Shown here in pieces: positions 3,001 to 40,820 of a stretch of 64,000 bases of DNA. A model generated the notes under the pieces. It was not told where the DNA came from. It was given only the letters and a program-made list of their open reading frames with translations, and did no database searches. Position numbers and translations under genes: made by a program. Source of the DNA: a virus (taxonomy: Duplodnaviria > Caudoviricetes); IMG/VR virus record IMGVR_UViG_3300028833_000067, positions 112,888 to 176,887 of that record; one strand, 5' to 3'. Every line of letters starts with the position of its first letter. Within the stretch, counting starts at the first letter, position 1.

Positions 3001-6000
3001 TCAACGTCGTCAATGGTGTAAAGATCAAGATGTTTACTTTGGTAGTAAATATTTACTTCCAAATGTATTCGCTGATCTATTTGAGTTCTCTTGTTATAAT
3101 CCTGGCGGCATGGCTGTAACACCGAACTGGGATTTAACAATTACTCCATATCAGGATATGTACATTAATATATCCTATGCTGAAACGTTTGCCCGTCCTT
3201 TCCGTGCAAAAGCTGGTAAAACATATGAGTTTAAATCTATCTTAAATGATATGAATGATTCTCGTATTCGTATTTATGGTGCAAATCATATTCAAGCTCT
3301 AGCAGGTAAAGCAATCCGTGATGCGGAAACGGGTGAAATTATCGGTGCTGAAGGTCTTGCTTCTTTCTACATGAAGGCAAACAACTTCCAGCATACACAT
3401 AAATTACGTAAGTTAATCATTGGTACTCCTAACACTGCTTATGAAAATGGTAACTTTACTACACTTAATATTACAGATGACAACCCAATCCTTGAAGTTT
3501 TAGATATCTAGAATTGCAATAACTTAGGTGGTCAACTTCCTTTAAGTAAGAGCACTTCTATTCAAAGAATTGAAGCACAAGGTACACAGATTACCTCTGT
3601 TAACTTACCTCCTAACACTGGTATACAAGTACTCCACTTACCAGAAACAATTAATAACATTACTCTATACTCTGCAAAGAGCCTACAAGAAATCACCTTA
3701 AAAGAGCGTGATGGAACAGTTAATACTTCTAATCTAACTACCTTATTAGTTAATGACAGTGACTACTCTTCAGTAAACGGTGAACTGCCAACCGTTAATT
3801 GGATGAAACTCGCGGCAAGTGCCTTGAGTCATATATCTAGCTTACAGTTAATTGGTTTAAGATCCGCTTACATTGGAAACATTTCTGACTTAGAACCTTT
3901 TGCTATGCGTAAGAATCAGTTAGGTACTACCACTAATGAAGCTGGTGACGAAATCTACAGAGTGTGGTTAAGTGGTCAAATCGCAGTTACTGGCGCATGG
4001 TCACAAATTGAGATAGATGATTATCAGTCTATCTGGCCCATAACTTTTACAACAATTCCCGCTAAGGAGCAATAGAAAGTTAAAGTAACTTATATGGAGA
4101 GCGCGCATTGGGAAGGAAATACTTGGGTAGAAGCACAACAAATAGGCGACTCTATATATGTTGCAGCAACTGGTAAAGATAGCGATCGCACTATCCCCGA
4201 TATTTATTATGGTTAGCAGCTTAGCGATTTACCAACTAGACCTTCTACTATTGATGAAGTATTCTCTTTTGGTGAAATTTTAGATGGACAATATTTAATG
4301 TATTCTGGCTGGTCTAAAACTCAAGGGCCTAATGCTGTTCCATTGAATAGTTTAAATGGCGGCAACTATGGTATTAATAATTTATATAGAGCTACTTCAA
4401 ATGATGTTGAAACAGGAATTACATTATATACTTATTATAAAGCATCAGCACATAAGTATACTGTAAGATGGTATTTAGATGATAATACTATAGTTAAATC
4501 CATGAGTAATCAAGATGCACATGGTGGATATACTCTAGAAGCTCCTACTGTTAAAGAAATGAGAACAGGTGTTGTTGATTATTCTAATAAATTAGCTTCA
4601 TATTCCTTTAAAGACGATACAGTAACTTATAAAATTTTTGATGGATGGGAGAAACTTCCTACTGATATTAGTCCAACATTAAAAGAATCAGATACTAGTA
4701 TATATCGTATTGATGCTAAATGGTATGAGGAGACTAAGTCGCTAACTGGAGAAAATGGTCTATTTAAAGATACATCTAATCTTACATTAGATTAGCTATA
4801 TATCTTATCTCATATGGATAGCTCAATGAAAAATAGTTTTACAGATAGTAAGCAAATTACTATTAATTAGAAATTTAGTTATACAATGGGATATGATGGA
4901 TTAAAAGATGGTTTGGTATTTGCTAATAATAAAAACTTTATTAATAGCCCAGCTACTCTCATTGCCGGTGAATATGCTACTGTTAATGGACAACGTATTG
5001 CTCCTTTCTCTAATAATGATGGCTTTACTATTGCAATAGATTATCAATTTGATAAAAATTAGAATTTAAATTCTAAAGCCGCAGTATTAGTAGGCTGTTA
5101 TAATAAAAATGAAGGAAATATTACTGGTTTTGCACTTTATCGAAATGGTGCTTCAACTGGTGAAGTACGTATAGGATATGGAGATTTTATTAATGACAGT
5201 AATAAATCTAAAGTTATTAATAATAGTGGTGCACGAAATATTGTTGTTATACGTCATCCAAAAGGATCATCAATACTATATATTTACTCCAGCGCAGCAA
5301 AGAATGATATTACTGCTATTAATTTACCAAACGTAGAATCAATTGATGTCAATACACAATTAATTGATAACAATGCATTTATTTGTTTAGGGAATTTACG
5401 TACTGATATTAGTGGCGATTCTGCTCTTTCTGATAATCCTTCTTATACTAATGAAATTAATAATGCCGGTAATGCATACGGAACTATTTATTGGGCAAAA
5501 TATTGGCCAGAAGACTTGGGTGCTGGTGAATGTAAACAACTAGCTGCGTGGCCGCATGAATCTATGACTTCTATGATTGCCGCGATAGGTTCTAATCAAA
5601 CAACTCTTCCAAACATTTATTTAAGCAATCTAAATGCTTCTCAGCATGCTTCAGTATAGCCACGAACATTAGGGAATACTACAGCAGAGCTTGGATGGGG
5701 TAATTCTGGAATTAAGTAGATTTGTGATAATCGTATTTTTGCTGGTTTACCAATAAGAATGCAATCTATTATAGGTAAGATTAATATTGGTTATTATAAT
5801 TCATATGTTACTCTTGATGAATATAATGCGCCAAGTTATGGTATAAATAATAATCTATTAACTGATGGGGCCTTTGTATATGTTCCTTCTATTAGTAGCT
5901 TAACATCTAGTATGAATACATATAATAAGGAATCAATAGTTGAACGTACTGGAAATTCTAGCAATGATACCAGTGATATTACTCCTTATCCATGGTTAAA

Positions 6001-27393: not shown

Positions 27394-27467
27394 ATTTACA
27401 GAAGATGAGGAAAGGAACTCACCTTCTATAAAATAATTTTTTTCATTACATAAGGAGGTAATGAGAT

Positions 27468-29161: not shown

Positions 29162-29238
29162 CGGGCACTAGCTCAGCAGGTTAGAGCAGCATCCTTATAA
29201 GTTGTGTGTCCCTGGTTCGAGTCCAGGGTGCCCGACCA
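29162..29238 (+). tRNA. tRNA-Ile(TAT)
   Basis: Cloverleaf; loop CTTATAA; encoded CCA. Confidence 0.85.
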
Positions 29239-29240
29239 AT

Positions 29241-29305
29241 TAGGCACGCGCAGCAAACTTTTTTTGAACAATTGTCTGCTAAACAATTAAGTTTATCGTG
29301 CCTAG
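29241..29305 (+). ncRNA. CAGCA-family RNA copy 1 (Ser-GCU anticodon-loop mimic)
   Basis: TAGGCACG/CGTGCCTA helix, CAGCAA, hairpin AATTGT-CTGCTAA-ACAATT. Confidence 0.6.
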
Positions 29306-29772
29306 TATTTCCCAATAGGGTAGCATGGATGAGCGCGAACTGAAGTGCTTGAGGGACAGGAACTACCATCTATAGGGCCTGTGAGTAAAGATAGATGGCG
29401 TGTGAGAGAAGGTAAACCTAGACTCCCCACTCAGCTAAACGGATTAGCAAAAGGTGTCGGCTAGGTCGCGGAATGGTTTTATCGGTTATACGACGGAGTG
29501 TGAAGGCAAATGGAAACCGAAGATAGCTATCGTTCACTGCTCGGAGAGACCGAGGATAAATAATCAAGCCCATTCTATGAAATGGTACGGCGCAAAGTTT
29601 TGGATGTTCTTCCAGCATTTGATCGGCGCATTATAAAAGAGGATTAAATCAAAGAATATTGTCCGAAAACCATAGGGAGGAATGGAGTTCCTCGGCGGCC
29701 AGTAAACTGCAATAAATGGTTCGATTCCATATGTGGCGTACCGATATGAAGTTCGGAGTAGGGCAATTTTAT

Positions 29773-29843
29773 GCGATTATAGTATAGTGGTAATACGCGG
29801 CCTTGCCAAGGCTGAATCACGAGTCCGAATCTCGTTAGTCGCT
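29773..29843 (+). tRNA. tRNA-Gly(GCC)
   Basis: Cloverleaf; loop TTGCCAA; U73; no CCA. Confidence 0.85.
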
Positions 29844-29847
29844 CTTG

Positions 29848-29967
29848 TAGACGTATCAGCAATCTTCTTTTGCATGTGAGAGCCCGTCAAGTGTTGGTTC
29901 AACTCCAACCCTCCCAACAGTTGGGAGGTCGCTCAATTGGCAGAAGCGCGGTTATAAGTACGTCTAG
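29848..29967 (+). ncRNA. CAGCA-family RNA copy 2 with permuted tRNA-like (YrlA-like) domain
   Basis: TAGACGTA/TACGTCTA helix, CAGCAA; T arm, then loop-closed acceptor stem, then D arm. Confidence 0.7.
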
Positions 29968-29973
29968 TTTTAT

Positions 29974-30046
29974 CGCACCTAGGACAAACAGTTAAGTCAC
30001 GGCGCTCATAACGCTTGAGGAATCGGTGCAACTCCGATAGGTGCTA
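29974..30046 (+). tRNA. tRNA-Met(CAT), possibly initiator-like
   Basis: Loop CTCATAA; C1:U72 mismatch; T loop TGCAACT. Confidence 0.7.
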
Positions 30047-30129
30047 CTCTCACCTTAGCAAAAGCGGTGACTAAACCGATGTGCGGCTAGCAACCTACTG
30101 CTATTTGGTGTATAAAGGAGGATGAATGA

Positions 30130-31833
30130 GTGAGAGCAGCAGTTTATAGTGGCACACGCAACATTTACGATAAAATGTTAATTGCGGCAAAATCTTTACT
30201 TATGCATTCAAATGTGGAAAAAATATATTTTCTTATTGAAGATGATTAGTATCCGTATGAGTTGCCAGAAGAAATAGAATGTATGAATATTAGCGGTCAA
30301 ACTTATTTTCCTAGTAGCGGCCCTAATTTTAATAATGTATGTACTTATATGGTATTAATTAGAGCCGCATATTCTAAAATATTTCCAGAATTAGATCGTA
30401 TTTTAAGTATTGACATGGATACCGTTGTTAATGAAAATATATCTGATTTATGGGATTTAGATTTAACAGATTATTATTTGGCCGCGGTTGAAGAATAGGA
30501 ACTATCAGAAAAAGAAGGCTCCTATATCAATATGGGTGTGGCAATGTTAAATCTAAAAAAAATTCGTGAAGATAAAAAAGATGATGAATTAATTAGTTCT
30601 TTAAATAATTATTGGTATAGATATAAAGAACAAGATTGTTTCAATGAAGTTTTTCGTGGAAATATTTTAATTTTACCAAGTGATTATAATGCGTGTATTT
30701 AGGCGGCTCCACCCAAACATGAGAAGATTACTCATTTTGCTGGACATTATGAATTAAATAAATTTCCTCATTTTAATTATTATAAAGAATTACCCATAGC
30801 TGAACTATAGAGAAATGTTCCAACACCAGTTACTTTAGATATTATTATTCCAACATATAAAAATAAAAAAGGATTAAGACGAACATTAAATTCTATTCCT
30901 TCTAATCCAAATGTTAATGTAATAGTAGTTGATGATGCATCAGAGTTAGATTATTCTGATATATTAATAGATTATCCTCAATTACATTTTTATTCATTAT
31001 CAATTAATCAAGGGCCAGGTATGGCTCGACAATATGGATTAGAACACAGTAATGGAATGTATATTACATTCCTTGATACTGGTGATTATTTTTATGAAAA
31101 TGGACTTCAAACTATATTAAATGCTATTAATGAAAATACATACATTAAACTATATACATTTTCTTATGTATATGATGATAGGAATATATTAAGTGATAGG
31201 CCAGATGATAAAACTATTGGGTCGGTATATAAACGTTCTTTTATTGAAATGTATAATATTCATTTTAGTAAAGAAGGTTCATACGCTAATGAGGATTATG
31301 GTTTTAGTCGTGCTTGTAAATTAATTTTAGATTAGTGGGAAAGATACCATTTTTCAGATGCTAGAAAGCATATAAAAATACCAGTATTTTATGAGCATAT
31401 TGATTCTCATTCTTTAACAAAAGCAAATAATGATGAATTTTTCTTTACCAAATTAAGTCCAGGAATTATTACAAATGGGATTCACGCAATCAATATCGCG
31501 CGAAAAGCGGGCATTAAAGAAGAATATTTAATAGAAGAATATAATTATATTATGGCTCAAGAATATTTCTTCTTTTTATGTATAATATAGGAACGTCCAG
31601 ATTTAGCTGATGATATATGGACAGTGATACGTAATTATTATTTAAATTGTTATCGTACGTATGAAAAATTTGCTTTACGAAATTTATCTACTTATTTCTC
31701 TTAGGTTAGTTTACCAAGAATTCGTAGTAGAATGAAGCGCTGGCCAAAAAATATTTCTTTTAATATTATGCGCTTTATTAAAGAATTACAAAATGAAGAA
31801 TTTACCCCAATTAGATATTTGACTTTAAATTAA
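30130..31833 (+). CDS. Fused glycosyltransferase GT8 + GT2
   Basis: ORFs 30262 and 31021 in frame via TAG; GT8 SIDMD, YINMGV, EQDCFN; GT2 IIIPTY, VVDD, FLDTGD. Confidence 0.8.
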
Positions 31834-31960
31834 ATTTAATGTATAATTATTATGTTGAGAGGGAGAAATTCCTCTTATATGGGTAGCGTTGGAGTCATGA
31901 CCAACGAGGTGAAGATGCTCCTATCATCGGCCATAATTTTAATTCATAGGAGGAATTATT

Positions 31961-32566
31961 ATGAGTAGAGCAGAAGATGTAAGTAATTATCGTAGAAGAA
32001 GAAAACAAAATCTTATTGAGGTTTTGGGTGGAAAATGTTAGATATGTGGTTTTGATTTATTTGCAGATGCATTAGAATTTCATCATGAAGACCCGACTAA
32101 AAAAGATTATGGAATTTCTTCAAAAGGGACTTGCCATGATATTGAAACTGACCTGAATGAAGTAAAAAAATGTTTTTTATTGTGTGCAAATTGTCATAGA
32201 GGAGTTCATAGTGGTTATTATGATGCTCCTACAGAACATATATTCAATAATGAATTAGCGCAAAGATTAATTAATGAACGCAATGATAAAATGACTGCTA
32301 AATTAAATTATTGTATTGATTGTCATTGTCAAATAGACTCTACAGCAACTCGCTGTCCAAGTTGTGCAGCAAAAGCCAGACGAGTTTGTGAAAGACCTTC
32401 ACGAGAAGAATTAAAGAAATTAATTCGCACATTACCATTTACTCAAATTGGAGAACATTTTGGCGTTAGAGATAATACAATACGTAAATGGTGTGATAAT
32501 ATGAATTTACCAAAAACTAAAAAAGAAATTAATTCTTACTCTGATGAAGAATGGGAAAAAATTTAA
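31961..32566 (+). CDS. HNH endonuclease with Zn-ribbon/HTH C-terminus
   Basis: AGGAGG RBS; KC(TAG=Q)ICG...LEFHH...LLCANCHRGVH. Confidence 0.8.
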
Positions 32567-32569
32567 TTT

Positions 32570-32598
32570 TTGACTTTCTTACAAAAATATACTATAAT
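32570..32598 (+). promoter_or_regulatory. sigmaA-type promoter
   Basis: TTGACT-N17-TATAAT. Confidence 0.6.
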
Positions 32599-32617
32599 AT
32601 ATTTGTAAGAAAGGTAT

Positions 32618-32735
32618 GGGAGATTCGCTAATCGGAATAGCACGCGGCTGGCCTGATACCAAAGAGATATAATAGGGGCAGGTCCTATATCAGACAATTA
32701 ACCGCGCCAGAGAGGTTCAACTCCTCTATCTCCCG
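32618..32735 (+). tRNA. tRNA-Asn(GTT) with a 47-nt insertion (32651-32697) in the anticodon loop
   Basis: Acceptor GGGAGAT/ATCTCCC + G73; D arm GCTA/TAGC; stem CGCGG/CCGCG; CTG|insert|TTAA; T arm AGAGG-TTCAACT-CCTCT. Confidence 0.75.
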
Positions 32736-32830
32736 CTCGTGCTTTGATGACCAAATGTAGCTTGGCAGTAAATAAACATTAATGCAGATGTGGGGTTATG
32801 ATGAAAGCCTTTACCTTAAAAGGCTATTAT

Positions 32831-32905
32831 GCCCTATTGGACAATCGGTTAAGTCACGTGCCCTTCAAGCACGAGGGCCCGGATCATCCCCGGGATAGGG
32901 TACCA
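32831..32905 (+). tRNA. tRNA-Glu(TTC), atypical T loop
   Basis: GCCCTAT/ATAGGGT-A-CCA; CGTGC-CCTTCAA-GCACG; T loop ATCATCC. Confidence 0.75.
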
Positions 32906-33161
32906 TTCAACCACATAAAGCCTGAATTGACAGGATATGACTGGCCAGTTGAGGTCTGGCGGCATACCCAGTGTGGACTTGTTGAAGCATTGGATATGTG
33001 TCTCGTGAGCGATGACAGCCGTGGTGAGGCAACTATGCCAAAAGAGTGATACTAAAATAGTAAGTGTGTGGAAAGGATGGATTCCCACTAACCTACGGGT
33101 AGCGCCCGCTTAGTCATTTAGTAGCACACTATAATAAAAAGACAACGAAAGTAAGTGGGTC

Positions 33162-33225
33162 AGGCGCATACAGCAAATTCTTATAAGATATTGATAATAT
33201 TTATGGCTACATTATTTGCGCCTAG
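33162..33225 (+). ncRNA. CAGCA-family RNA copy 3 (Ile-GAU anticodon-loop mimic)
   Basis: AGGCGCA/TGCGCCT helix, CAGCAA, AGATA-TTGATAA-TATTT. Confidence 0.55.
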
Positions 33226-33833
33226 TATTTTTGGTAGTATGCTAGAGCCATCGCGAGGAGAGTTATCTATAACATCCTACGTTCTACCATATGAGATGGC
33301 CACCGCCCCTGCGCTTCGGAAAGCGGTATATAAATTGGAGTAGGGCCACCCGCTATAGGGGATGGAGAAATATGTAGCTTGCGCTTTCGATGCACAGTGG
33401 CAGTAGCAAGTAAAAAATAGACCATCTGGCCGTGCAATAGAGCAGTAAAGTGTACGTTAAAGAATCGGATTCTGCTATGGGTTGTGTTTAATGAGCACGA
33501 TCTTCGTATATACTACGATCTCCAGTATGAGGAAAAACTACCGTTTGGATTGGTTGTAAGGCCATGGTCCACCCCTACGCCGGACACCGCTGAGACGTGC
33601 AGCAACCGCGCCGTAGATGAGTTTCTCTTGACTCTGGGATGTTCCCTAAATAAGAGCGGGATGAATATCCCGCAAATGGTCCCCGAGACAGTAAAGCTGG
33701 CGTTTCTAGAGCGCAAAGATAGTTCGCATACGGGGTTACATACTATCATAAGTACAGGAGCGATGAGCAGTTATTTCGCTTAATATTCGACTAGACCATG
33801 GACGCATGGCGGACAAATCCTGTATTTTTCTAT

Positions 33834-33916
33834 GCCCAAGTGGCGTAACGGCAGCCGCCAGGGACTTAAAATCCCTTGCTCGTATGAGCGTGCCGGTTCG
33901 AATCCGGCCTTGGGCA
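33834..33916 (+). tRNA. tRNA-Leu(TAA)
   Basis: Cloverleaf with long variable arm; loop CTTAAAA. Confidence 0.88.
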
Positions 33917-33966
33917 CTTTCCATTAGGTGGAGCTTGGAACCTACCGCCTTTTGGCTGTGATGTAC

Positions 33967-33996
33967 GGGACGTCATAATTTGGCGTCCCTATTTTT
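33967..33996 (+). terminator. Intrinsic terminator
   Basis: GGGACGTCA...TGGCGTCCC followed by TATTTTT. Confidence 0.65.
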
Positions 33997-34018
33997 AAAT
34001 CAAAAAGGAGGAATTTTT

Positions 34019-34393
34019 ATGAAGAAATTTATCGCACTACTAATAACTTTTATGCTATGTTTTTCTTTAACTTATGCAGAATAGACTGAAGACGTAATAA
34101 GTAAACCGCATTCTGAAACCGTAACAGTTCTGGCACCAAAAGGTGATTGGAGCGTAACCATCACTTCATCCTTAGATGGAAAAGAAAGTGTTATATCTGG
34201 TACAGAAGTAACTTTAACTGCGCACTTTTCTGGCAAGCGTGAAGGCGATACTTTACAGTATATTTGGCAAGAGCGCAAGAGTGAAAACGATAAGTGGAAG
34301 GAAATTGGTACAGATTCTACCGAATATAAATTTAATATTACAGCTGAAAATGTAACACATCAATGGCGAGTAATAGTTCGTGTGACTTGGTAA
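34019..34393 (+). CDS. Secreted Ig-like domain protein
   Basis: Signal peptide MKKFIALLITFMLCFSLTYAE; VTLTAH...YIWQ...W..I; one TAG. Confidence 0.7.
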
Positions 34394-34406
34394 GGAAGGT
34401 GGGAGT

Positions 34407-35720
34407 ATGAAGAAACTCATAGCATTCCTTTTATGCTTCCTACTAGGCTCCGTAAGCTATGCAGAAGAGTTAATTACTTCTGAATTATTTTTTACTAATA
34501 TACATATAATTCCAACATCGAATTATGTAGTAAAATAGTCTAATTTAAATGATTTTAGTATAGTAGCGTTACAAGATGCTACTATACAAGGTCATATTCG
34601 TGGCTCTCTTTGGGTTGGGGGAACTTTAAGAAGTGCTGATTGGATATTTGTAGATGATGGGTCTATCAATCATTCAGGCGCGAAAACCAGTTATATTTAT
34701 AACAATGAGTCCTCAATCCAATTTAAAAGTAGAACTAGCGAGCAGAGTAAATACGCATATAATGGATTAACAGATGAGGCGGTACATAAGACTACTAATT
34801 ATTGGATAAATATACTTGATAAATTAAAAGAGAGTAATTGTGTTTATATTGAGCCAGATAGTAATGGACATGCTGATATTGTAGGTTGGTCGACGCCTGG
34901 TATTACGCAATATCAGGCGCAGGGAAATGATGAAACAAAACAATCAAGTAATATTGTATATTGGACTGATGCTACATCAGTAACAATTGCAGGAATTATT
35001 GGGTTCGTTATAGCGCCAAAAGCAAATATAATAATACAATCTTCTAATAATAGAATTTCTGTAGTAGGTAAGACAGTAACAGTTAATTGGGCGGAATTAC
35101 ATGTAAATTATGGTATTCCTAATATTCCTACCCCAACTCCGTCTCCTACTCCAACTCTATCTCCTACCCCGACTCCAACTACAACTGCAACGCCTACTGC
35201 AACACCTACTTAGACATTTACTCCAACGCCTAAAATAACTAATAGTCCATCGCCAACTCCTACTAATAAAATACCAAGCCCAATATTAACTCCAGTTATT
35301 ACAATAGTAACAATTGTTACTTATACTCCATAGCCTAAAATTACTCCAACACCTACTACAACTTTAGTTAAAACAAATACACCACGACCAAGTTTAATTC
35401 CATTAACTCCAACTCCAACCCCAACTCCTAAAATTACTATAACTCCAACACCAACCCATACATCAACTCCTAAGATTACAAATACTCCATCTAATACTCC
35501 TATTATAACACCCAAACCAACCCCAACTTTTACCCCAAAAAAGACTCCATCTACACCTACTATTATACCTACTTCTACTCCTACCCCTACTATAACGCCT
35601 ACTATTGATCCAAAACGGATTCCAAAAAGACCTGGCATACCAATTCATATTATTAATGAATATGATACGCCACTAGGTTTAGAAATTATAATAAATCATG
35701 TAGGAGATTGTTTTGATTAA
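34407..35720 (+). CDS. Secreted surface protein: beta-rich N-domain, Thr/Pro mucin-like stalk, C-terminal YDTPLG...HVGDCFD motif
   Basis: Signal peptide [20 protein letters not shown]; PT repeats ~35125-35610; several TAG. Confidence 0.7.
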
Positions 35721-35842
35721 TGTATTTTATTATTCATACTTTGCTTGAAACAGATATAGGCTTAATTTTAGTAGGGCTTTTAATATTTATAGGACTAGTA
35801 GTAGAATTTTTAGATAACAATAATAATAGACCACAATTTTAA
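35720..35842 (+). CDS. Small membrane peptide
   Basis: TAATG coupling; single hydrophobic helix. Confidence 0.45.
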   Translation: MYFIIHTLLETDIGLILVGLLIFIGLVVEFLDNNNNRPQF

Positions 35843-35845
35843 TAT

Positions 35846-35874
35846 TTGACTTATAATAAAAATTTTGTTATAAT
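35846..35874 (+). promoter_or_regulatory. sigmaA-type promoter
   Basis: TTGACT-N17-TATAAT with TG extension. Confidence 0.65.
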
Positions 35875-36001
35875 ATTTATGTTGAAAGGGAAACTGAGTA
35901 AAAGTCCTTTACAGTTTGGCGCCATCCCAGTTAGGACTCTAAACTGAACTGTTGTAAGACCGCCGCCCAGCTTAGGGGATGTAAAATATACTAAGCAATA
36001 T

Positions 36002-36074
36002 GCTTCCATAGCTCAACTGGCAGAGCAATACTCTTGTAAAGTATAGGTTGTAAGTTCGATTCTTACTGGGAGCT
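36002..36074 (+). tRNA. tRNA-Thr(TGT)
   Basis: Cloverleaf; loop CTTGTAA. Confidence 0.88.
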
Positions 36075-36326
36075 CTATACCAACGGACAAGGCTTTGGCG
36101 CATGACAATATCAGCGAAGAGGGAGCGTAAGCGTTATTAACCTATAAGTGATATTGAACAGGGCGGTGGGACGCGAGTGGTTGGTAATTTATAGCAGAAG
36201 GCGCGGCAGTATAGCACCCTGAAAGGACAAAACCATTACAATATTCTGCTTATTATATGGAACTAATCTATCCGGAGTTCCTGCGGTTCAAGGATAGGGT
36301 TTGCGGCACCTTAGACCGCATCATAT

Positions 36327-36400
36327 GCCTCTCTAATCCAACTGGAAGAGATAGCACGCTTAGAACGTGTACAGTGTAAGTTCAAATCTTACGAGAGGTA
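36327..36400 (+). tRNA. tRNA with TAG (Leu) anticodon, short variable loop
   Basis: GCACG-CTTAGAA-CGTGT; 5-nt variable region; A73. Confidence 0.8.
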
Positions 36401-36620
36401 CGATTGTTGTTCAGCTGACAACCCAGTGGATGGATTTGACGCATCCCGTGCTACTACTGCGAGAGGGTTCACGCCTAGGCTTTGCATGCGGACCACGGCC
36501 CATGAAGGTAGCACATTATATCATCTCTCTTGGCGTATGGCAAGACCGAAAGGATAGAAGCTTGGGTTGGTACCAGATTCCGTTATAACAAGAGCCCACG
36601 GGAAAGAGATGGTAATATTA

Positions 36621-36693
36621 CTCTCCGTAAGCTAACTGGATAAACTCCAACGCTACGAACGTTGCATTGAAGGATCGTACCCTTCCGGGGAGA
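36621..36693 (+). tRNA. tRNA-Arg(ACG), atypical T loop
   Basis: CAACG-CTACGAA-CGTTG; T loop ATCGTAC. Confidence 0.8.
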
Positions 36694-36736
36694 CTTCGCG
36701 CGAAAAGCGCAAATTCATTTTGGAGGTACCTATAAT

Positions 36737-37276
36737 ATGAATGAACCAAGACTAAAGATTCTTCCCCCATGGACGATTCTAGTAAGGAAGCTAGAGGCTC
36801 TATTTGATGGTGACCCTCAGATTGCTTTCAATGTTGACTTTAGCGGCGAGCATCCATCTGTTGTTCTTTCCTGTAATAATGGAGACAAAGTTGCTGCACT
36901 AATGCAGATTCTACCTGAAGAAATTAACTTTGGCAATGTTACATTAAAGGTAATGGTTGATGGCACGCCTAGCAATCGCGCCTTTAAGAGCAAGGTTGAA
37001 CTATTTAGTACTGCTTTTGCTAAGAATCCTGCCTATGCGTATTCTGTATGCCCCGCAGAAGAGGGCTATCAGTGGATTGGTACTACTTATGTTGTATTTA
37101 ATAATTGTGTAGTACAGTTCGCGGCTGATAATCTAAATGACTGTCATGGAGTAATTAGTACTCTATATGAGACAATTGCCAGCGAGCTTCTAACTGGACC
37201 CGCAACTGAAGGTGTATTCTTTAATACTAATGTTGAACGCGCGGGACTTGGGATGCCGCTTGGGGAGTGGCCGTAA
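36737..37276 (+). CDS. Hypothetical protein
   Basis: GGAGG RBS; 179 aa; no TAG. Confidence 0.75.
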   Translation: MNEPRLKILPPWTILVRKLEALFDGDPQIAFNVDFSGEHPSVVLSCNNGDKVAALMQILPEEINFGNVTLKVMVDGTPSNRAFKSKVELFSTAFAKNPAYAYSVCPAEEGYQWIGTTYVVFNNCVVQFAADNLNDCHGVISTLYETIASELLTGPATEGVFFNTNVERAGLGMPLGEWP

Positions 37277-37569
37277 TTTAATATTTTGAGAATAGGTGCT
37301 TTCGTAACGAATCAAGGATATGGTAAGAGTGCAGTTTGACGAGCTGTACCAAAAGACTTGGGCGCCAAAAGGCAGAAGTTAAATGGTATTGAAAACCAGC
37401 CTATTCCGCCGAGATGTCGGTAGTAGCAAATATTCATACGCGAGTAAATGCAAACATCATAAATCCTACAATAGCCAGCGATAGCATGGACGCTATGGAC
37501 GCCCTTTAAAGTTGTTCGCGGTAGTGAGAATAACCTTCGCCGTGGCGAAGTAAAAGAGCCACGGAATAT

Positions 37570-37642
37570 GCGCCATTAGCTCATCTGGTAGAGCACAGCA
37601 CTTTTAATGCTGGCGTGCGGAGTCCGAGTCTCCGATGGCGCA
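37570..37642 (+). tRNA. tRNA-Lys(TTT)
   Basis: Cloverleaf; loop CTTTTAA. Confidence 0.88.
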
Positions 37643-37709
37643 CTAATAATTGACATTAAATAAAATTTATAGTATAATTATTTCAGTAAGAAGGAAAGGA
37701 AGTAAGAAT

Positions 37710-37940
37710 ATGAGAGATCCAAATCGTATTGATAGGTTTTGTGATGAGCTTAAAGCGATTTGGCATCAAGTGCCAGATTGGCGCTTTGGGCAACTCATGG
37801 AAAATATGCTTAGTGCAAGGCTACAAGCAGTACAAAATCCCAATGGTTTCTTTTATACTGAAGATGAAGAATTGTTTGCCTTCTTTGAAAGCTATATAAA
37901 AGAAATTGTAAAAGATGGCAGACAAAATAAAGATTGGTAA
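37710..37940 (+). CDS. Small phage protein (MRDPNRID...PDWRFGQL family)
   Basis: Promoter 37650-37678; AGGA RBS. Confidence 0.7.
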   Translation: MRDPNRIDRFCDELKAIWHQVPDWRFGQLMENMLSARLQAVQNPNGFFYTEDEELFAFFESYIKEIVKDGRQNKDW

Positions 37941-38146
37941 TAACTAATCCACCTGACATGGCTGTGACTACAAGGCGCGGAAAGGTGGCGGCAATCTCTA
38001 GCCCAAGCAAGTTGAAACGATATACACCCTTGGGATGAAAGCTCAACACAGAGCAGAGCGAGATATAACGTGAGTTTTATATACATATGTATGTAGTCGG
38101 TCTCCCTGTGGCCCGTTACGTTATAGGTTGGCACAGGGGAAGCTTC

Positions 38147-38223
38147 CGGGCATTGGCGCAATCGGTTAGCGCGCAGACCTGATAAGTCTGAGGTTTCTGG
38201 TTCGATTCCAGAATGCCCGACCA
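38147..38223 (+). tRNA. tRNA-Ile(GAT)
   Basis: Cloverleaf; loop CTGATAA; CCA. Confidence 0.9.
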
Positions 38224-38313
38224 CCGAGGCGGGAAGCTCAAAGATACGTGGATGGCCAACACGGTCGTGCGAGTAAAATCCAGCGCAAATAGCCCGTAGG
38301 ATCCTCGGGCCAT

Positions 38314-38459
38314 AGGAGAATCATATAACGGTAGTATGGCGGTCTCCGGGGCGATAGTGTAAAGAACACACTAGGAAAGCAAGGACCTAGTAATTGAAGG
38401 GCAGTACTGAGGCGCTCCACCAAAAACCGTTCGTCCTGGTTCAAATCCAGGCTCTCTTG
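38314..38459 (+). tRNA. tRNA-Trp(CCA) interrupted by a 75-nt tRNA-like insert (38348-38422)
   Basis: AGGAGAA/CTCTCTT + G73; GCGGT-CTCC|insert|AAA-ACCGT; T arm CCTGG-TTCAAAT-CCAGG. Confidence 0.78.
38348..38422 (+). ncRNA. Nested degenerate tRNA-Ala-like RNA
   Basis: GGGGCG/CGCTCC-A-CCA with G3.U70; D arm GTGT/ACAC; stem CTAGG/CCTAG; weak T stem with GGCAGTA loop. Confidence 0.7.
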
Positions 38460-38463
38460 CTTA

Positions 38464-38527
38464 AAGACTCGTCAGCAACATTTTTCAAGCATCTAATTGT
38501 TAATTTGACTAGCTATAAACGAGTCTT
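38464..38527 (+). ncRNA. CAGCA-family RNA copy 4 (Asn-GUU anticodon-loop mimic)
   Basis: AAGACTCG/CGAGTCTT helix, CAGCAA, TCTAA-TTGTTAA-TTTGA. Confidence 0.55.
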
Positions 38528-38534
38528 GTTTTAT

Positions 38535-38608
38535 ACCCTACTACCCCAATTGGCAGAGGGAACTGACTCAAAATCAGTAAAGTCTCGGTCCGAATCCGAG
38601 GTGGGGTA
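38535..38608 (+). tRNA. tRNA with CAA (Leu) anticodon, short variable loop
   Basis: ACTGA-CTCAAAA-TCAGT; 5-nt variable region; A73. Confidence 0.8.
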
Positions 38609-39008
38609 CTATTTAAACCGAGTGTCTGGGGCCTTCTTCGCTCTTTTCCCAGCCGAAACGCACAAAGACTCCTGCGTCTGAGCGAGGCGGAAGTGGAGTT
38701 GCCGGGTTTACATCCCTGCGGTTTACCGGCTATTTTATACTTATCTGATTTAAGCCCAGTATACTAAAGCGATATAACTTTTATGGGCTTCGTGCAATAA
38801 GATAAGTATTGCGCCAAGAGATTTAAAGGTTATGCATTGAGGCGCGCTGAGCGAGCTCCAGCTCACATTATTAAACAATTTATTGGAGCATGATTGGTGA
38901 ATAGAGTGCGATCGGTAACACTGTAAATAATTCCGGAAGTAATAGCACAGGTTAGAGTCGCCGGACCTCTGTTAATTGGGGCGAAAACACCATCCAAAGT
39001 GCTGTTAT

Positions 39009-39079
39009 GGGGATATAGTATAACAGTAAAACAGTAGCTTTGCAAGCTTCAGACCGGGGAGCGTCACCCCGTATCTCCA
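39009..39079 (+). tRNA. tRNA-Ala(TGC), atypical T loop
   Basis: GGGGATA/TATCTCC with G3.U70; loop TTTGCAA; T loop AGCGTCA. Confidence 0.8.
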
Positions 39080-39100
39080 CTTCATTTAGGAGGACTATAT

Positions 39101-39397
39101 ATGAAATATAAAGTAATTACATTATGTGGTTCAACGCGCTTTAAGGAAGATTTTGAACGTATTAATCGAGAACTTACACTTTAGGGCAATATAGTAATTA
39201 GTGTTGGTTGTTTTGGCCATGCCGGAGATGTATTTACAGAAGAGTAGAAAGAAATGCTCGATGATATCCATAAGCGTAAGATTGATATGGCTGATGAGAT
39301 CTTCGTTATTAATAAAGGTAAATATATTGGCACAAGTACCCGTAATGAAATTGAATATGCAATTTTGCATGATAAACCAGTGAGGTATATGGAATAA
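39101..39397 (+). CDS. DUF4406/nucleoside deoxyribosyltransferase-like fold protein
   Basis: ITLCGSTRFK...ELTL(Q)GNIVIS...HKRKIDMADEIFVIN...YIG.ST..EI; two TAG. Confidence 0.7.
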
Positions 39398-39422
39398 TTT
39401 ATATCAGATGGAGTTGATGTGT

Positions 39423-39728
39423 ATGCGTAATCGTGCAGAAAAGCGTCATAATGATTGGAAAAAGGCTATTCGTAAGCGTCGTATTGATCGAGAAACGCAA
39501 GGTACTTCTTTATTTTCCCATGATACTTTTGAATATTTACATCAATATTCTAAAGGGCATTGGGCTTGTGGTTGTGGCATGTGTAAACGATATAATAAGA
39601 CCAATAATCGTGGACGGAAACGGAAAATTCATGGTAATTATGCGCCATCTAAAAATTGGTCAGTACAAGATGAACGCCGTATCGAAGAAATGGAAGATCA
39701 AATACTTGACAATGAACAAGATTTCTGA
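39423..39728 (+). CDS. Basic hypothetical protein with CxCxxC
   Basis: GGAG RBS; ORF track. Confidence 0.65.
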   Translation: MRNRAEKRHNDWKKAIRKRRIDRETQGTSLFSHDTFEYLHQYSKGHWACGCGMCKRYNKTNNRGRKRKIHGNYAPSKNWSVQDERRIEEMEDQILDNEQDF

Positions 39729-39843
39729 TATAATTATTATAGAAAAAGGGAGATAAGATATACATAAGAGGCAACTTGATAGAGTTTGTTGCAAAACATT
39801 AAATAGTAAACATCTCCTTTCTCGCGGCGAAAGCCGCATTTAT

Positions 39844-39918
39844 CGGGGCGTAGCTCAGTTTGGCTAGAGCGGGTGGTTTGGGACCATCAGGTCGCGTGTT
39901 CGAATCGCGTCGCCCCGA
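39844..39918 (+). tRNA. tRNA-Pro(TGG)
   Basis: Canonical cloverleaf; loop TTTGGGA. Confidence 0.9.
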
Positions 39919-39922
39919 CTTA

Positions 39923-39987
39923 TAGGCCATTACAGCATAATCATATTTAAATGGAAAGAATAATTGCATATTATTAAAATGGCCTAG
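39923..39987 (+). ncRNA. CAGCA-family RNA copy 5 (Cys-GCA-like loop)
   Basis: TAGGCCATT/AATGGCCTA helix, CAGCAT, AATAA-TTGCATA-TTATT. Confidence 0.5.
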
Positions 39988-40104
39988 TATTTAAATATTC
40001 GCGCTTCGGCGTAAATAGATTACCGCGTTGGGATCCGTATAGGTGAAAAGCCCTATTTGAAAGAGGCGGAGTAGTATCCGCAACTCTTCCGCGGCGTTTT
40101 TAAT

Positions 40105-40255
40105 TTAGAACTGTAGGCTTAGAAGCAGCCATCAGCTAAAGAGTTTTCTTTTCTCCATGCGTGCGAAATGTATTATGGGCTTACAATTATTTGTCCTATA
40201 AGTATGATGTGCGGTGGGTAATAGAAAAAGAAATTTGGCGTAATAGCACATCTAA
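40105..40255 (+). ncRNA. Mimic of the 23S rRNA L11-binding domain (H43/H44) with an inserted long hairpin
   Basis: TGTAGGCTTAGAAGCAGCCATCA..TAAAGAGT and GCGTAATAGC match the conserved 23S GTPase-associated centre; closed by TTAGA/TCTAA. Confidence 0.75.
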
Positions 40256-40270
40256 TTTTAAGGAGTATTT

Positions 40271-40447
40271 ATGGAAGATAAACTACATGAAGTTTATAAT
40301 TGTCTAAAAGTGATAGATATGATGCTTTATAAACATGCTTATGAACCAGAAACGGTAAAAGGATTTGAATCTACCTCTGATATGGCTAAATACTATAGAG
40401 AATTTCTTCATGTTATTCTTCCAGAGGAATATCAATATCAAAAATGA
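40271..40447 (+). CDS. Small hypothetical protein
   Basis: AGGAG RBS; 58 codons. Confidence 0.55.
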   Translation: MEDKLHEVYNCLKVIDMMLYKHAYEPETVKGFESTSDMAKYYREFLHVILPEEYQYQK

Positions 40448-40530
40448 CACTATGGCGGAATGGTAACGCACCAGATTGCTAATCTGCGGTTACTTAAAAG
40501 GGTATGCACGTTCGAGCCGTGCTAGTGTCG
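40446..40530 (+). tRNA. tRNA-Ser(GCT)
   Basis: Long variable arm; loop TTGCTAA; G73. Confidence 0.85.
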
Positions 40531-40532
40531 CT

Positions 40533-40681
40533 TTGCGGTGGCGGAAAAGGTGTAGACGCTAAACATTCATTAGGGTCCGCAGTGGTTCGATTCCACCTAC
40601 TCTAATTATGCGGTGGAGCAACAGAGTAAGAATGTGTAGGCATGAACGGATCTATGTGAGGTGCAAATCCTCACCCGCATT
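40533..40681 (+). ncRNA. tRNA-like RNA with an expanded anticodon arm
   Basis: TGCGG/CCGCA acceptor; type II D arm; T arm GTGAGG-TGCAAAT-CCTCAC; ~90-nt interior containing a second T arm. Confidence 0.55.
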
Positions 40682-40692
40682 TTATCTAGTAT

Positions 40693-40763
40693 TGGGGTGT
40701 AGCCAAGCGGCAAGGCACAGGACTTTGACTCCTGCATCGTTGGTTCAAATCCAACCACCCCAG
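40693..40763 (+). tRNA. tRNA-Gln(TTG)
   Basis: TGGGGTG/CACCCCA-G; loop CTTTGAC. Confidence 0.9.
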
Positions 40764-40820
40764 CTGATTCCGTATGTGTTGGTCCGATTCCAACAGGGAC
40801 TGCTTTTAGGAGGGATTATT

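Follow-up and report, generated by a model that had tools for sequence, protein, structure and literature searches.

The 64,000-nucleotide (nt) stretch of DNA from a caudoviricete rumen phage analysed here, which comprises positions 112,888 to 176,887 of the IMG/VR record IMGVR_UViG_3300028833_000067 and is referred to throughout as the window, contains at positions 40105-40255 of its plus strand an RNA element whose interpretation as a free-standing structural mimic of the uL11-binding domain of 23S rRNA, the GTPase-associated centre (GAC), is supported by sequence comparison. The comparison further supports the view that the element has been selected as a structure. The element is a small stable RNA gene and not a remnant of rRNA, and it belongs to a family of RNAs found largely on viral contigs.

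A first-pass annotation, made from the letters of the window alone, had described a copy of helix 43 (H43), the adjoining junction and the loop of helix 44 (H44), all of which were recovered in place. When the 23S rRNA from an annotated Escherichia coli genome is taken as the reference for alignment, the local alignment contains 19 consecutive identical bases against rRNA nt 1062-1080 and 10 against nt 1091-1100, and a blastn search with window positions 40095-40265 found the annotated 23S rRNA gene of every one of the 5426 E. coli genomes. The departures from rRNA are also those that the annotation had anticipated: the pair C1057-G1081 stands for an A-U pair in E. coli and is the compensated pair; the domain is closed by a new helix, TTAGA/TCTAA, the pairing of which is seen in the window and covaries in the family; and the inserted hairpin, put at about 90 nt, measures 89 nt (40145-40233), its insertion point falling between U1090 and G1091. 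The reported lack of flanking rRNA is borne out both by comparison with E. coli 23S rRNA, in which the flanks of the element prove unrelated to rRNA, and by Rfam scans at gathering and permissive thresholds, in which no large subunit (LSU) rRNA match falls on the element. The element is present in a single copy, since a 14-mer from it is found once in the whole 176,887-bp phage genome, the record of which is rated 98% complete; within the window, the 13-mer GCTTAGAAGCAGC has one exact occurrence.

The family was delimited by two scans of viral contigs, one using a 17-mer from H43, which yielded at least 118 loci, and the other using the family-specific 3' motif TTTGGCGTARYAGCACA, which yielded at least 119 distinct cases. 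Nearly all of the loci from the first scan are not rRNA and have the layout seen in the window; among the matches listed in the second, an H43-like hairpin lies no more than 520 nt upstream of the 3' motif in 108 of 119 distinct cases. The two scans when pooled give at least 127 distinct complete members, at least 108 of them on viral contigs, and the length of the insert among the 127 members listed ranges from 41 to 346 nt, with a median of 128 nt. An apparent minimal relative of about 60 nt, which has nearly no insert and a divergent base of H44, lies at 3713-3775 on the plus strand of locus L011, and two loci (L044 and L280) hold two copies each within about 1.2 kb.

Selection for structure is evident from the pair counts, which were taken from 58 members for which the H43 motif was the sole anchor. 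In the closing helix P1, the pairs 1051:1108 to 1053:1106 are found in all four Watson-Crick types; the pair 1057:1081 is A-U in 45 members, C-G in 7 and G-C in 2; the pair 1058:1080 is G-C in 25, U-A in 22, A-U in 6 and C-G in 4; and the junction pair 1082:1086 is U-A in 31 of the 58 and C-G in 17. Because the switching of this last pair between U-A and C-G is explained only by a GAC-type junction, it argues for the presence of that junction. The first four (basal) pairs of the insert vary freely across the family and yet stay paired. In an alignment test, for which 22 sequences were aligned with MAFFT and the GAC structure was written in by hand, 91.1% of the cells are paired, compared with 66.0% in shuffles (none of 500 reaches the observed value) and 33-52% in slid controls, and the covariation score is 0.659 against 0.177. 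Since the architecture recurs in more than 100 distinct viral relatives, in which each variable helix shows compensatory changes, the element is more than a chance resemblance, and the earlier proposal that structure is what has been selected holds for the closing helix, the base of H43, the pair 1082:1086 and the base of the insert, each of which covaries.

The conservation of particular bases is equally marked. G1059, U1060, G1062, U1083-A1085, G1087 and A1088 are near-invariant without being forced by the search pattern, as are G1071, C1072 and A1073 in the sample anchored on the 3' motif, and the tertiary-core nucleotides G1059, U1060, G1071, C1072, A1073 and A1088 are kept in at least 97% of members in samples that were not anchored on them. 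G1087, A1088, G1089 and U1090 are each conserved in 55-57 of the 58 members and each position of the UUUG linker in 51-56, and the stretch GCGUARYAGCACA, with A1101, is conserved across the family, although rare variants of the H44 loop exist. The least conserved positions of the H43 loop are 1067, 1068 and 1070 (87%, 81% and 86%, respectively, in the 3'-anchored sample), and A1067 and A1095 are conserved at 87-97%. Covariation and conservation together show, at the level of comparative analysis, that the predicted core fold is the GAC fold. The window element itself displays each of the family features for which it was tested, namely the closing helix P1, the H43 loop and junction with the pair 1082:1086, the insert with UUUG and A1101, and a position in a tRNA array.

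The cultured carriers of the RNA include Cronobacter phage GAP32, Pectobacterium phage CBB and Pseudomonas phage pf16, in the last of which it lies in a tRNA cluster; similarity to the CBB locus adds Serratia phage BF and jumbo phages of Erwinia and Yersinia. In the records of the cultured carriers, the RNA is either unannotated or overlaid by a "hypothetical protein". The site of the insert between U1090 and G1091, the UUUG linker, A1101 and G1089-U1090 are derived features which are absent from rRNA and are kept whatever the host: the host of GAP32 is an enterobacterium whose rRNA has A1089, A1090 and U1101, yet the GAP32 RNA keeps the family bases. Because the derived features are retained independently of the host, the family looks like one old invention that has spread among phages, and not like the product of repeated captures.

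A phage RNA family of this kind seems to be undescribed. No Rfam 15 family, GOLLD, ROOL, tRNA-like RNAs and L10_leader included, matched the element up to E = 10 in a permissive scan of positions 39900-40460 or in a scan of the window at the gathering threshold, and in the loci of 20 relatives the element was unmatched by Rfam 15 at the gathering score; the only matches of the three scans were tRNAs, one GOLLD RNA and cow-rumen-4, all of them outside the element. A phage mimic of the GAC or of the uL11 site is not described in the searchable full-text literature, which covers subscription journals incompletely.

Table 1. Parts of the GAC-mimic RNA and features close to it in the window; numbers such as 1051 refer to E. 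coli 23S rRNA.
Feature	Position	Strand	Remarks
Whole GAC-mimic RNA core	40105-40255	+	151 nt; equivalent to E. coli 23S nt 1051-1108 plus the 89-nt insert
Closing helix P1, 5' strand (TTAGA)	40105-40109	+	Replaces H42 nt 1051-1055; pairs with 40251-40255
H43-like hairpin (1057-1081), loop 1065-1073 including A1067	40111-40135	+	C1057-G1081, U1058-A1080 and A1061 in the window
Junction CUAAA (1082-1086)	40136-40140	+	C1082-G/A1086-type closing pair; the window bases are C and A
G1087, A1088, G1089, U1090	40141-40144	+	Base of H44; A1088 is the partner of U1060
Inserted irregular hairpin, 89 nt	40145-40233	+	No rRNA equivalent; type specific to the subfamily of the window
Linker UUUG, between insert and G1091	40234-40237	+	Family-specific; not in rRNA
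Top of H44, loop GUAAUA including A1095 (G1091-C1100)	40238-40247	+	10 bases identical to E. coli
A1101, C1102, A1103	40248-40250	+	A1101 is U in rRNA
Closing helix P1, 3' strand (TCTAA; 1104-1108)	40251-40255	+	Pairs with 40105-40109
tRNA-Pro	39844-39919	+	185 nt upstream of the element
58-codon open reading frame (ORF)	40271-40447	+	AAGGAG 4 nt after the RNA, ATG 7 nt further on
Sigma-70-type promoter-like site	39706-39734	+	TTGACA, 17 nt, TG-TATAAT; 12/12; extended -10; upstream of tRNA-Pro

The properties of the ribosomal domain suggest what such a copy might do. The isolated 58-nt domain folds alone and binds both uL11 and thiostrepton, and its tertiary fold is stabilized by the substitution U1061A (PMC2719339), which corresponds to the A1061 of the window. 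The pair U1060-A1088 is contacted by Gly130-Thr131 of uL11 (PMC2175356), and A1067 and A1070 are surface nucleotides of the fold (PMC2719339, PMC2175356). The features of sequence and tertiary core that characterize uL11-binding RNAs, including U1060-A1088, are all found in the mimic at the level of sequence and covariation, and the chances that the free RNA would bind host uL11 appear to be about even. To our knowledge, uL11 is the one universal protein that binds the isolated domain tightly. The range of the carriers points in the same direction: their loci span 25-69% G+C and their hosts come from several phyla, no neighbour protein recurs (in an all-against-all blastp comparison of 1522 ORFs, the commonest family is present in 8 of 118 loci), and no uL11 gene was found in five carrier genomes, all of which points to a universal partner supplied by the host. 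Ribosomes that are short of uL11, as in relC (rplK) mutants, support only poor activation of RelA and poor termination by RF1.

The overall model that we favour, tentatively and at somewhat less than an even chance, is that the RNA is an off-ribosome copy of the GAC which captures host uL11 and blunts the stringent response. The RNA would be transcribed together with the phage tRNAs, in the window probably from the promoter at 39706-39734, and in most relatives it would be cut out by tRNA-processing enzymes, as the RNA abuts tRNAs. Its two ends fold into the 58-nt GAC domain (the top of H42, H43 and H44), with the variable hairpin exiting between U1090 and G1091, and the free RNA would show the same surface as the ribosomal domain, for which the most likely ligand would be host uL11. 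At an abundance like that of tRNAs, it would keep uL11 that is free or exchanging away from the ribosome, and the expected effect would be a blunted stringent response in infection, with weaker activation of RelA and weaker RF1-dependent termination; in a TAG-recoded phage, the amber suppressor would gain a side benefit. The pattern of variation in the H43 loop leans towards selection for the fold and for uL11 docking over selection for the face that is presented to factors and antibiotics, because 1067, 1068 and 1070 are the most variable positions while the core is almost fully kept.

Several observations weigh against the capture of uL11, and two of them concern the fold itself. In nearest-neighbour folding of the window RNA, the GAC-type structure has an energy of -18.8 kcal/mol, compared with -37.0 kcal/mol for the minimum free energy (MFE) structure, the z-score of which is -1.3; and both the MFE structure and RNAalifold prefer to pair the linker UUUG (40234-40237) with the UAAA of the junction (40136-40140). 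The genuine E. coli 58-mer has a similar gap (-4.6 against -16.0), and because the real domain behaves likewise, the energetics neither support nor refute the GAC fold. The UUUG and UAAA columns are both nearly without variation, so that no covariation signal can come from them, while the covariation of 1082:1086 favours the GAC junction; the complementarity may reflect a two-state switch or a set of base triples. The remaining points concern the proposed function. There is about one copy of uL11 per ribosome, so its titration would need very high levels of the RNA; A1067 and A1095 are still largely conserved, though they should be dispensable for the C-terminal domain of uL11; the model assigns no role to the variable insert or to the invariant UUUG, A1101 and G1089-U1090; and a hairpin resembling the sarcin-ricin loop, which is present in two members, points to translation factors instead of uL11.

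The first-pass annotation had also connected the RNA with recoding of UAG, and here the claim about the phage must be separated from the claim about the RNA. The phage does look TAG-recoded by its ORF content: if TAG is read through, the ORFs of at least 150 amino acids (aa) in the window total 17,165 aa as against 9,159 aa, and a frame of 2177 aa opens. ARAGORN finds no tRNA with a CUA anticodon in the window; any amber suppressor must be interrupted or located elsewhere. The tie between the RNA and recoding, on the other hand, does not extend to the family, since most carriers show no sign of recoding and CUA tRNAs are only marginally commoner near the RNA. Such a tRNA is nearby in 10 of 108 viral member loci and in 3 of 117 control phage tRNA loci (p = 0.044, calculated for loci that are not mutually independent), and among loci with five or more tRNAs, the counts are 8 of 45 and 3 of 39 (p = 0.20). 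A crude read-through metric, which is noisy and confounded by G+C content, flags about 6 of 146 loci as TAG-type, and the records of GAP32, CBB and pf16 carry ordinary gene annotation. Because the family occurs mostly in phages without a sign of recoding, and because the excess of CUA tRNAs fades, a weakening of RF1 would bring this phage a side benefit at most and would not explain why the family exists.

The best surviving alternative to uL11 capture, which is unlikely but not far-fetched, is that the RNA acts as a decoy or competitive substrate for enzymes or antibiotics which attack the GAC (ADP-ribosyltransferases of the Tre23 type, nucleases or thiopeptides), and shields the host ribosomes in infection through a surplus of free target sites, much as phage tRNAs are thought to counter defences directed against tRNAs. 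No anti-phage defence is known to target the GAC domain. In favour of a decoy, a bacterial toxin that ADP-ribosylates nt 1095-1098 in H44 of this same domain exists (PMC8661411), the isolated domain is recognized by Tsr and thiostrepton (PMC2719339), and a phage RNA mimic that defeats an abortive-infection toxin provides a precedent (PMC3475682). The location of the RNA in tRNA arrays would also suit a decoy, as would the conservation of the H44 loop and of A1067, which may not be needed by the fold or by uL11; within the H43 loop, however, A1067, G1068 and A1070 are the least conserved positions. A stoichiometric decoy would moreover be weak against a catalytic toxin where tens of thousands of ribosomes are exposed, and an attacker would need to be as widespread as the family, which spans phages of many phyla.

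It is distinctly improbable that the RNA imitates the factor-binding site as such, binding EF-G, IF2, RF3, EF-Tu or RelA directly, with or without uL11, and using the insert for additional contacts. The evidence that raises this explanation is the sarcin-ricin-loop-like hairpin, of the form AGUA-C-GNRA-G-GAA, which occurs in 2 of 127 inserts where 0.06 would be expected in shuffles; it lies at about position 223 of the 309-nt insert of L035 and at about position 245 of the 346-nt insert of L066, and these two RNAs copy both halves of the factor-binding site. A1067 and A1095 are turned towards the factors, and their conservation is also in keeping with this explanation. The pattern search of the inserts did not, however, find the hairpin in the window or in 125 of the 127 members, and a blastn-short comparison of the 127 inserts with E. 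coli 23S rRNA brought out no region that recurs more often than in the reverse-strand control (16 against 17 members). Factors are, in addition, generally known to bind the GAC weakly outside the 70S context. An apparent likeness of GUGCGAAAUG...AAGUAUGAUG in the window to 23S nt ~1247-1267 was dropped, as it consists of two 7-mers with E = 22 each.

A still smaller probability is attached to the possibility that the GAC-like fold is a compact, nuclease-resistant handle, perhaps coated with uL11, and that the variable insert is the working part, with a function specific to each lineage. The inserts do differ widely in length, and their subfamilies have modules of their own. In the subfamily of the window, the insert is a long irregular hairpin, and RNAalifold applied to 10 sequences gives 47 pairs, 19 of them with compensatory (double) changes, which lie mostly in this hairpin; it holds a conserved non-canonical helix, GYGCGAAAUG opposite UGAUGUGC. 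In 13 members (for example L004, L115, L195 and L262, 3' part), the hairpin GUCACCCCGUAACUGGUAAGGAC stands directly before the basal helix of the insert. Against this, the core is far better conserved than any insert, including bases that a mere scaffold would not need, a letter-for-letter copy of rRNA would be hard to explain, and the apparent member in L011 is nearly without an insert. A GGUAA-like motif is common about 12 nt before the UUUG linker, a place at which the window has GGGUAAUAG. Readings of the insert of the window as a K-turn, an S-turn or a tetraloop receptor were worked through by hand and rejected, as none fits the consensus.

The genomic setting of the RNA is dominated by tRNAs. 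In the window, ARAGORN identifies 13 tRNAs at 29162-40764, all on the plus strand, and the element lies inside this array, with a tRNA-Ser 190 nt downstream. A tRNA is present in the fetched locus of 92 of the 126 other members, and in all 92 the nearest one shares the strand of the RNA, the median distance being 17.5 nt (50 nt or less in 51 members; medians of 11-18 nt across sets); 52 of 125 member loci have at least five tRNAs. The RNA is absent from all 117 control phage loci that were picked by a common tRNA motif, and is therefore confined to a minority of phages even among those with tRNA genes. Transcription of the RNA probably starts at the promoter-like site of Table 1, and a sequence search found no terminator-like site between this site and position 40800; the quality of the promoter match points to the host RNA polymerase as the enzyme that transcribes this stretch of the array. 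Contigs from sheep and bovine gut RNA libraries cover 40104-40255, one of them without mismatch over 40129-40255, and, being assembled contigs, they indicate presence only. A depth spike at 40110-40150 was rejected as a signal of the element, as it arises from true rRNA contigs.

This setting makes it very improbable that the RNA is a cis-acting, uL11-responsive leader of the ORF at 40271-40447. The AAGGAG and ATG do follow the RNA at short distances, and leaders of ribosomal-protein genes work in such an arrangement, but in the closest relatives, L020 and L022, a tRNA-Ser comes directly after the RNA (distance 0) and there is no ORF, for which reason the ORF is considered a local addition of the window; across the family, the neighbour is a closely spaced tRNA, and no downstream protein family recurs. 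Virtually no weight can be given to the possibilities that the element is a dead fragment of 23S rRNA taken up from a host or that it arose as an artefact of assembly: although phage records can hold true rRNA, as does that of Paenibacillus phage Pd_22F, the absence of flanking rRNA and the derived features shared by the family but lacking in rRNA (UUUG, A1101 and the insert site) argue against a captured piece, which the compensatory changes in more than 100 relatives refute, and the same locus appears in independent assemblies. The Pd_22F locus (L120, MZ092003, ~83500-84040) was itself rejected as a family member, as it contains several hundred bases of genuine, unannotated 23S sequence, which may be host DNA or an assembly issue.

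The mimic shares with the GAC of 23S rRNA its secondary structure, the junction pair 1082:1086, the tertiary-core nucleotides and both loops, with A1067 and A1095. It differs in being a separate small gene in phage tRNA arrays; in having a short helix of free sequence in place of H42, so that the uL10 site is missing; in the insert of 41-346 nt at U1090/G1091 followed by UUUG; in A1101, where the rRNA has U; and in the somewhat relaxed positions 1067, 1068 and 1070. GOLLD (RF02032) and ROOL (RF03087) occupy the same niche in phage tRNA arrays, but cmscan detects no relation to them in sequence or structure, and the mimic is much smaller and has as its core a copy of a ribosomal domain. The leaders of ribosomal-protein operons (L10, L1, L20 and S15) imitate rRNA, a phenomenon termed "rRNA mimicry" (Meyer 2018, PMC7247131), and they resemble the phage RNA in being off-ribosome RNAs that copy the rRNA site of a ribosomal protein. 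Such leaders, however, are cis-acting 5' untranslated regions (UTRs) of bacterial ribosomal-protein operons and copy few contact nucleotides, whereas the mimic copies a whole domain and is proposed to act in trans; it does not lie in the 5' UTR of a ribosomal-protein gene, its neighbours being tRNAs or unrelated small ORFs, and a uL11-binding leader of this kind is not described in the searchable literature.

Among RNAs that hold proteins, 6S RNA imitates an open promoter for RNA polymerase, and CsrB and RsmZ are sponges for CsrA. The proposed logic of the mimic, in which an abundant RNA holds a host protein, is like that of these RNAs and of the phage PhiTE pseudo-ToxI RNA (PMC3475682). The mimic would differ from such titrating decoys in that the ligand imitated is an rRNA domain, the binding itself being proposed. 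No described kind of system accommodates a copy of a functional rRNA domain that is encoded by a virus and acts in trans; its nearest analogues are the cis-acting leaders of ribosomal-protein genes and decoy RNAs that titrate proteins. We know of no virus that encodes a copy of a functional rRNA domain.

The function of the family is probably important for the way in which large phages take over or protect host protein synthesis, since the family is widespread, strongly conserved and sited in tRNA arrays that are devoted to translation. In its most far-reaching form, the capture model would hold that large phages of many phyla use the GAC copy as an RNA-only weapon, by which uL11 (and, in the lineages with a sarcin-ricin loop, factors) would be captured, the RelA-dependent stringent response turned off, termination altered and, in TAG-recoded phages, the suppressor favoured over RF1; this proposal is doubtful, but if it were true, it would provide the first instance of a virus that imitates a functional centre of ribosomal RNA. 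The family bears on the manipulation by phages of uL11, the stringent response or termination through RNA mimicry, and on the real purpose of phage tRNA arrays. It also represents a classic RNA tertiary fold in a natural form that tolerates insertions, and its cultured carriers (pf16 on P. putida, Cronobacter phage GAP32 and Serratia phage BF) open it to genetics and biochemistry.

Outside viral contigs, matches to the 3' 17-mer in bacterial contigs are mostly due to chance: about 36 of 121 places have an H43-like stretch upstream, and about 25-30 are convincing, the convincing members lying mostly on tRNA-rich contigs of metagenome-assembled genomes from many phyla. Other structured RNAs accompany the tRNA arrays of the carriers. 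A GOLLD RNA (164.8 bits) lies at 685-1176 on the minus strand of L021, sharing its phage tRNA array with a member of the GAC-mimic family, and in the window a cow-rumen-4 RNA (27398-27464, plus strand; 57.6 bits compared with an Rfam gathering score of 48.5) lies just upstream of the tRNA array. Within that array, the tRNA finders disagree on five genes, of which those at 29974-30046 and 39009-39079 are found by Rfam only and those at 32831-32905, 36621-36694 and 38535-38609 by ARAGORN only, and this disagreement suggests that the array contains unusual or interrupted tRNAs.

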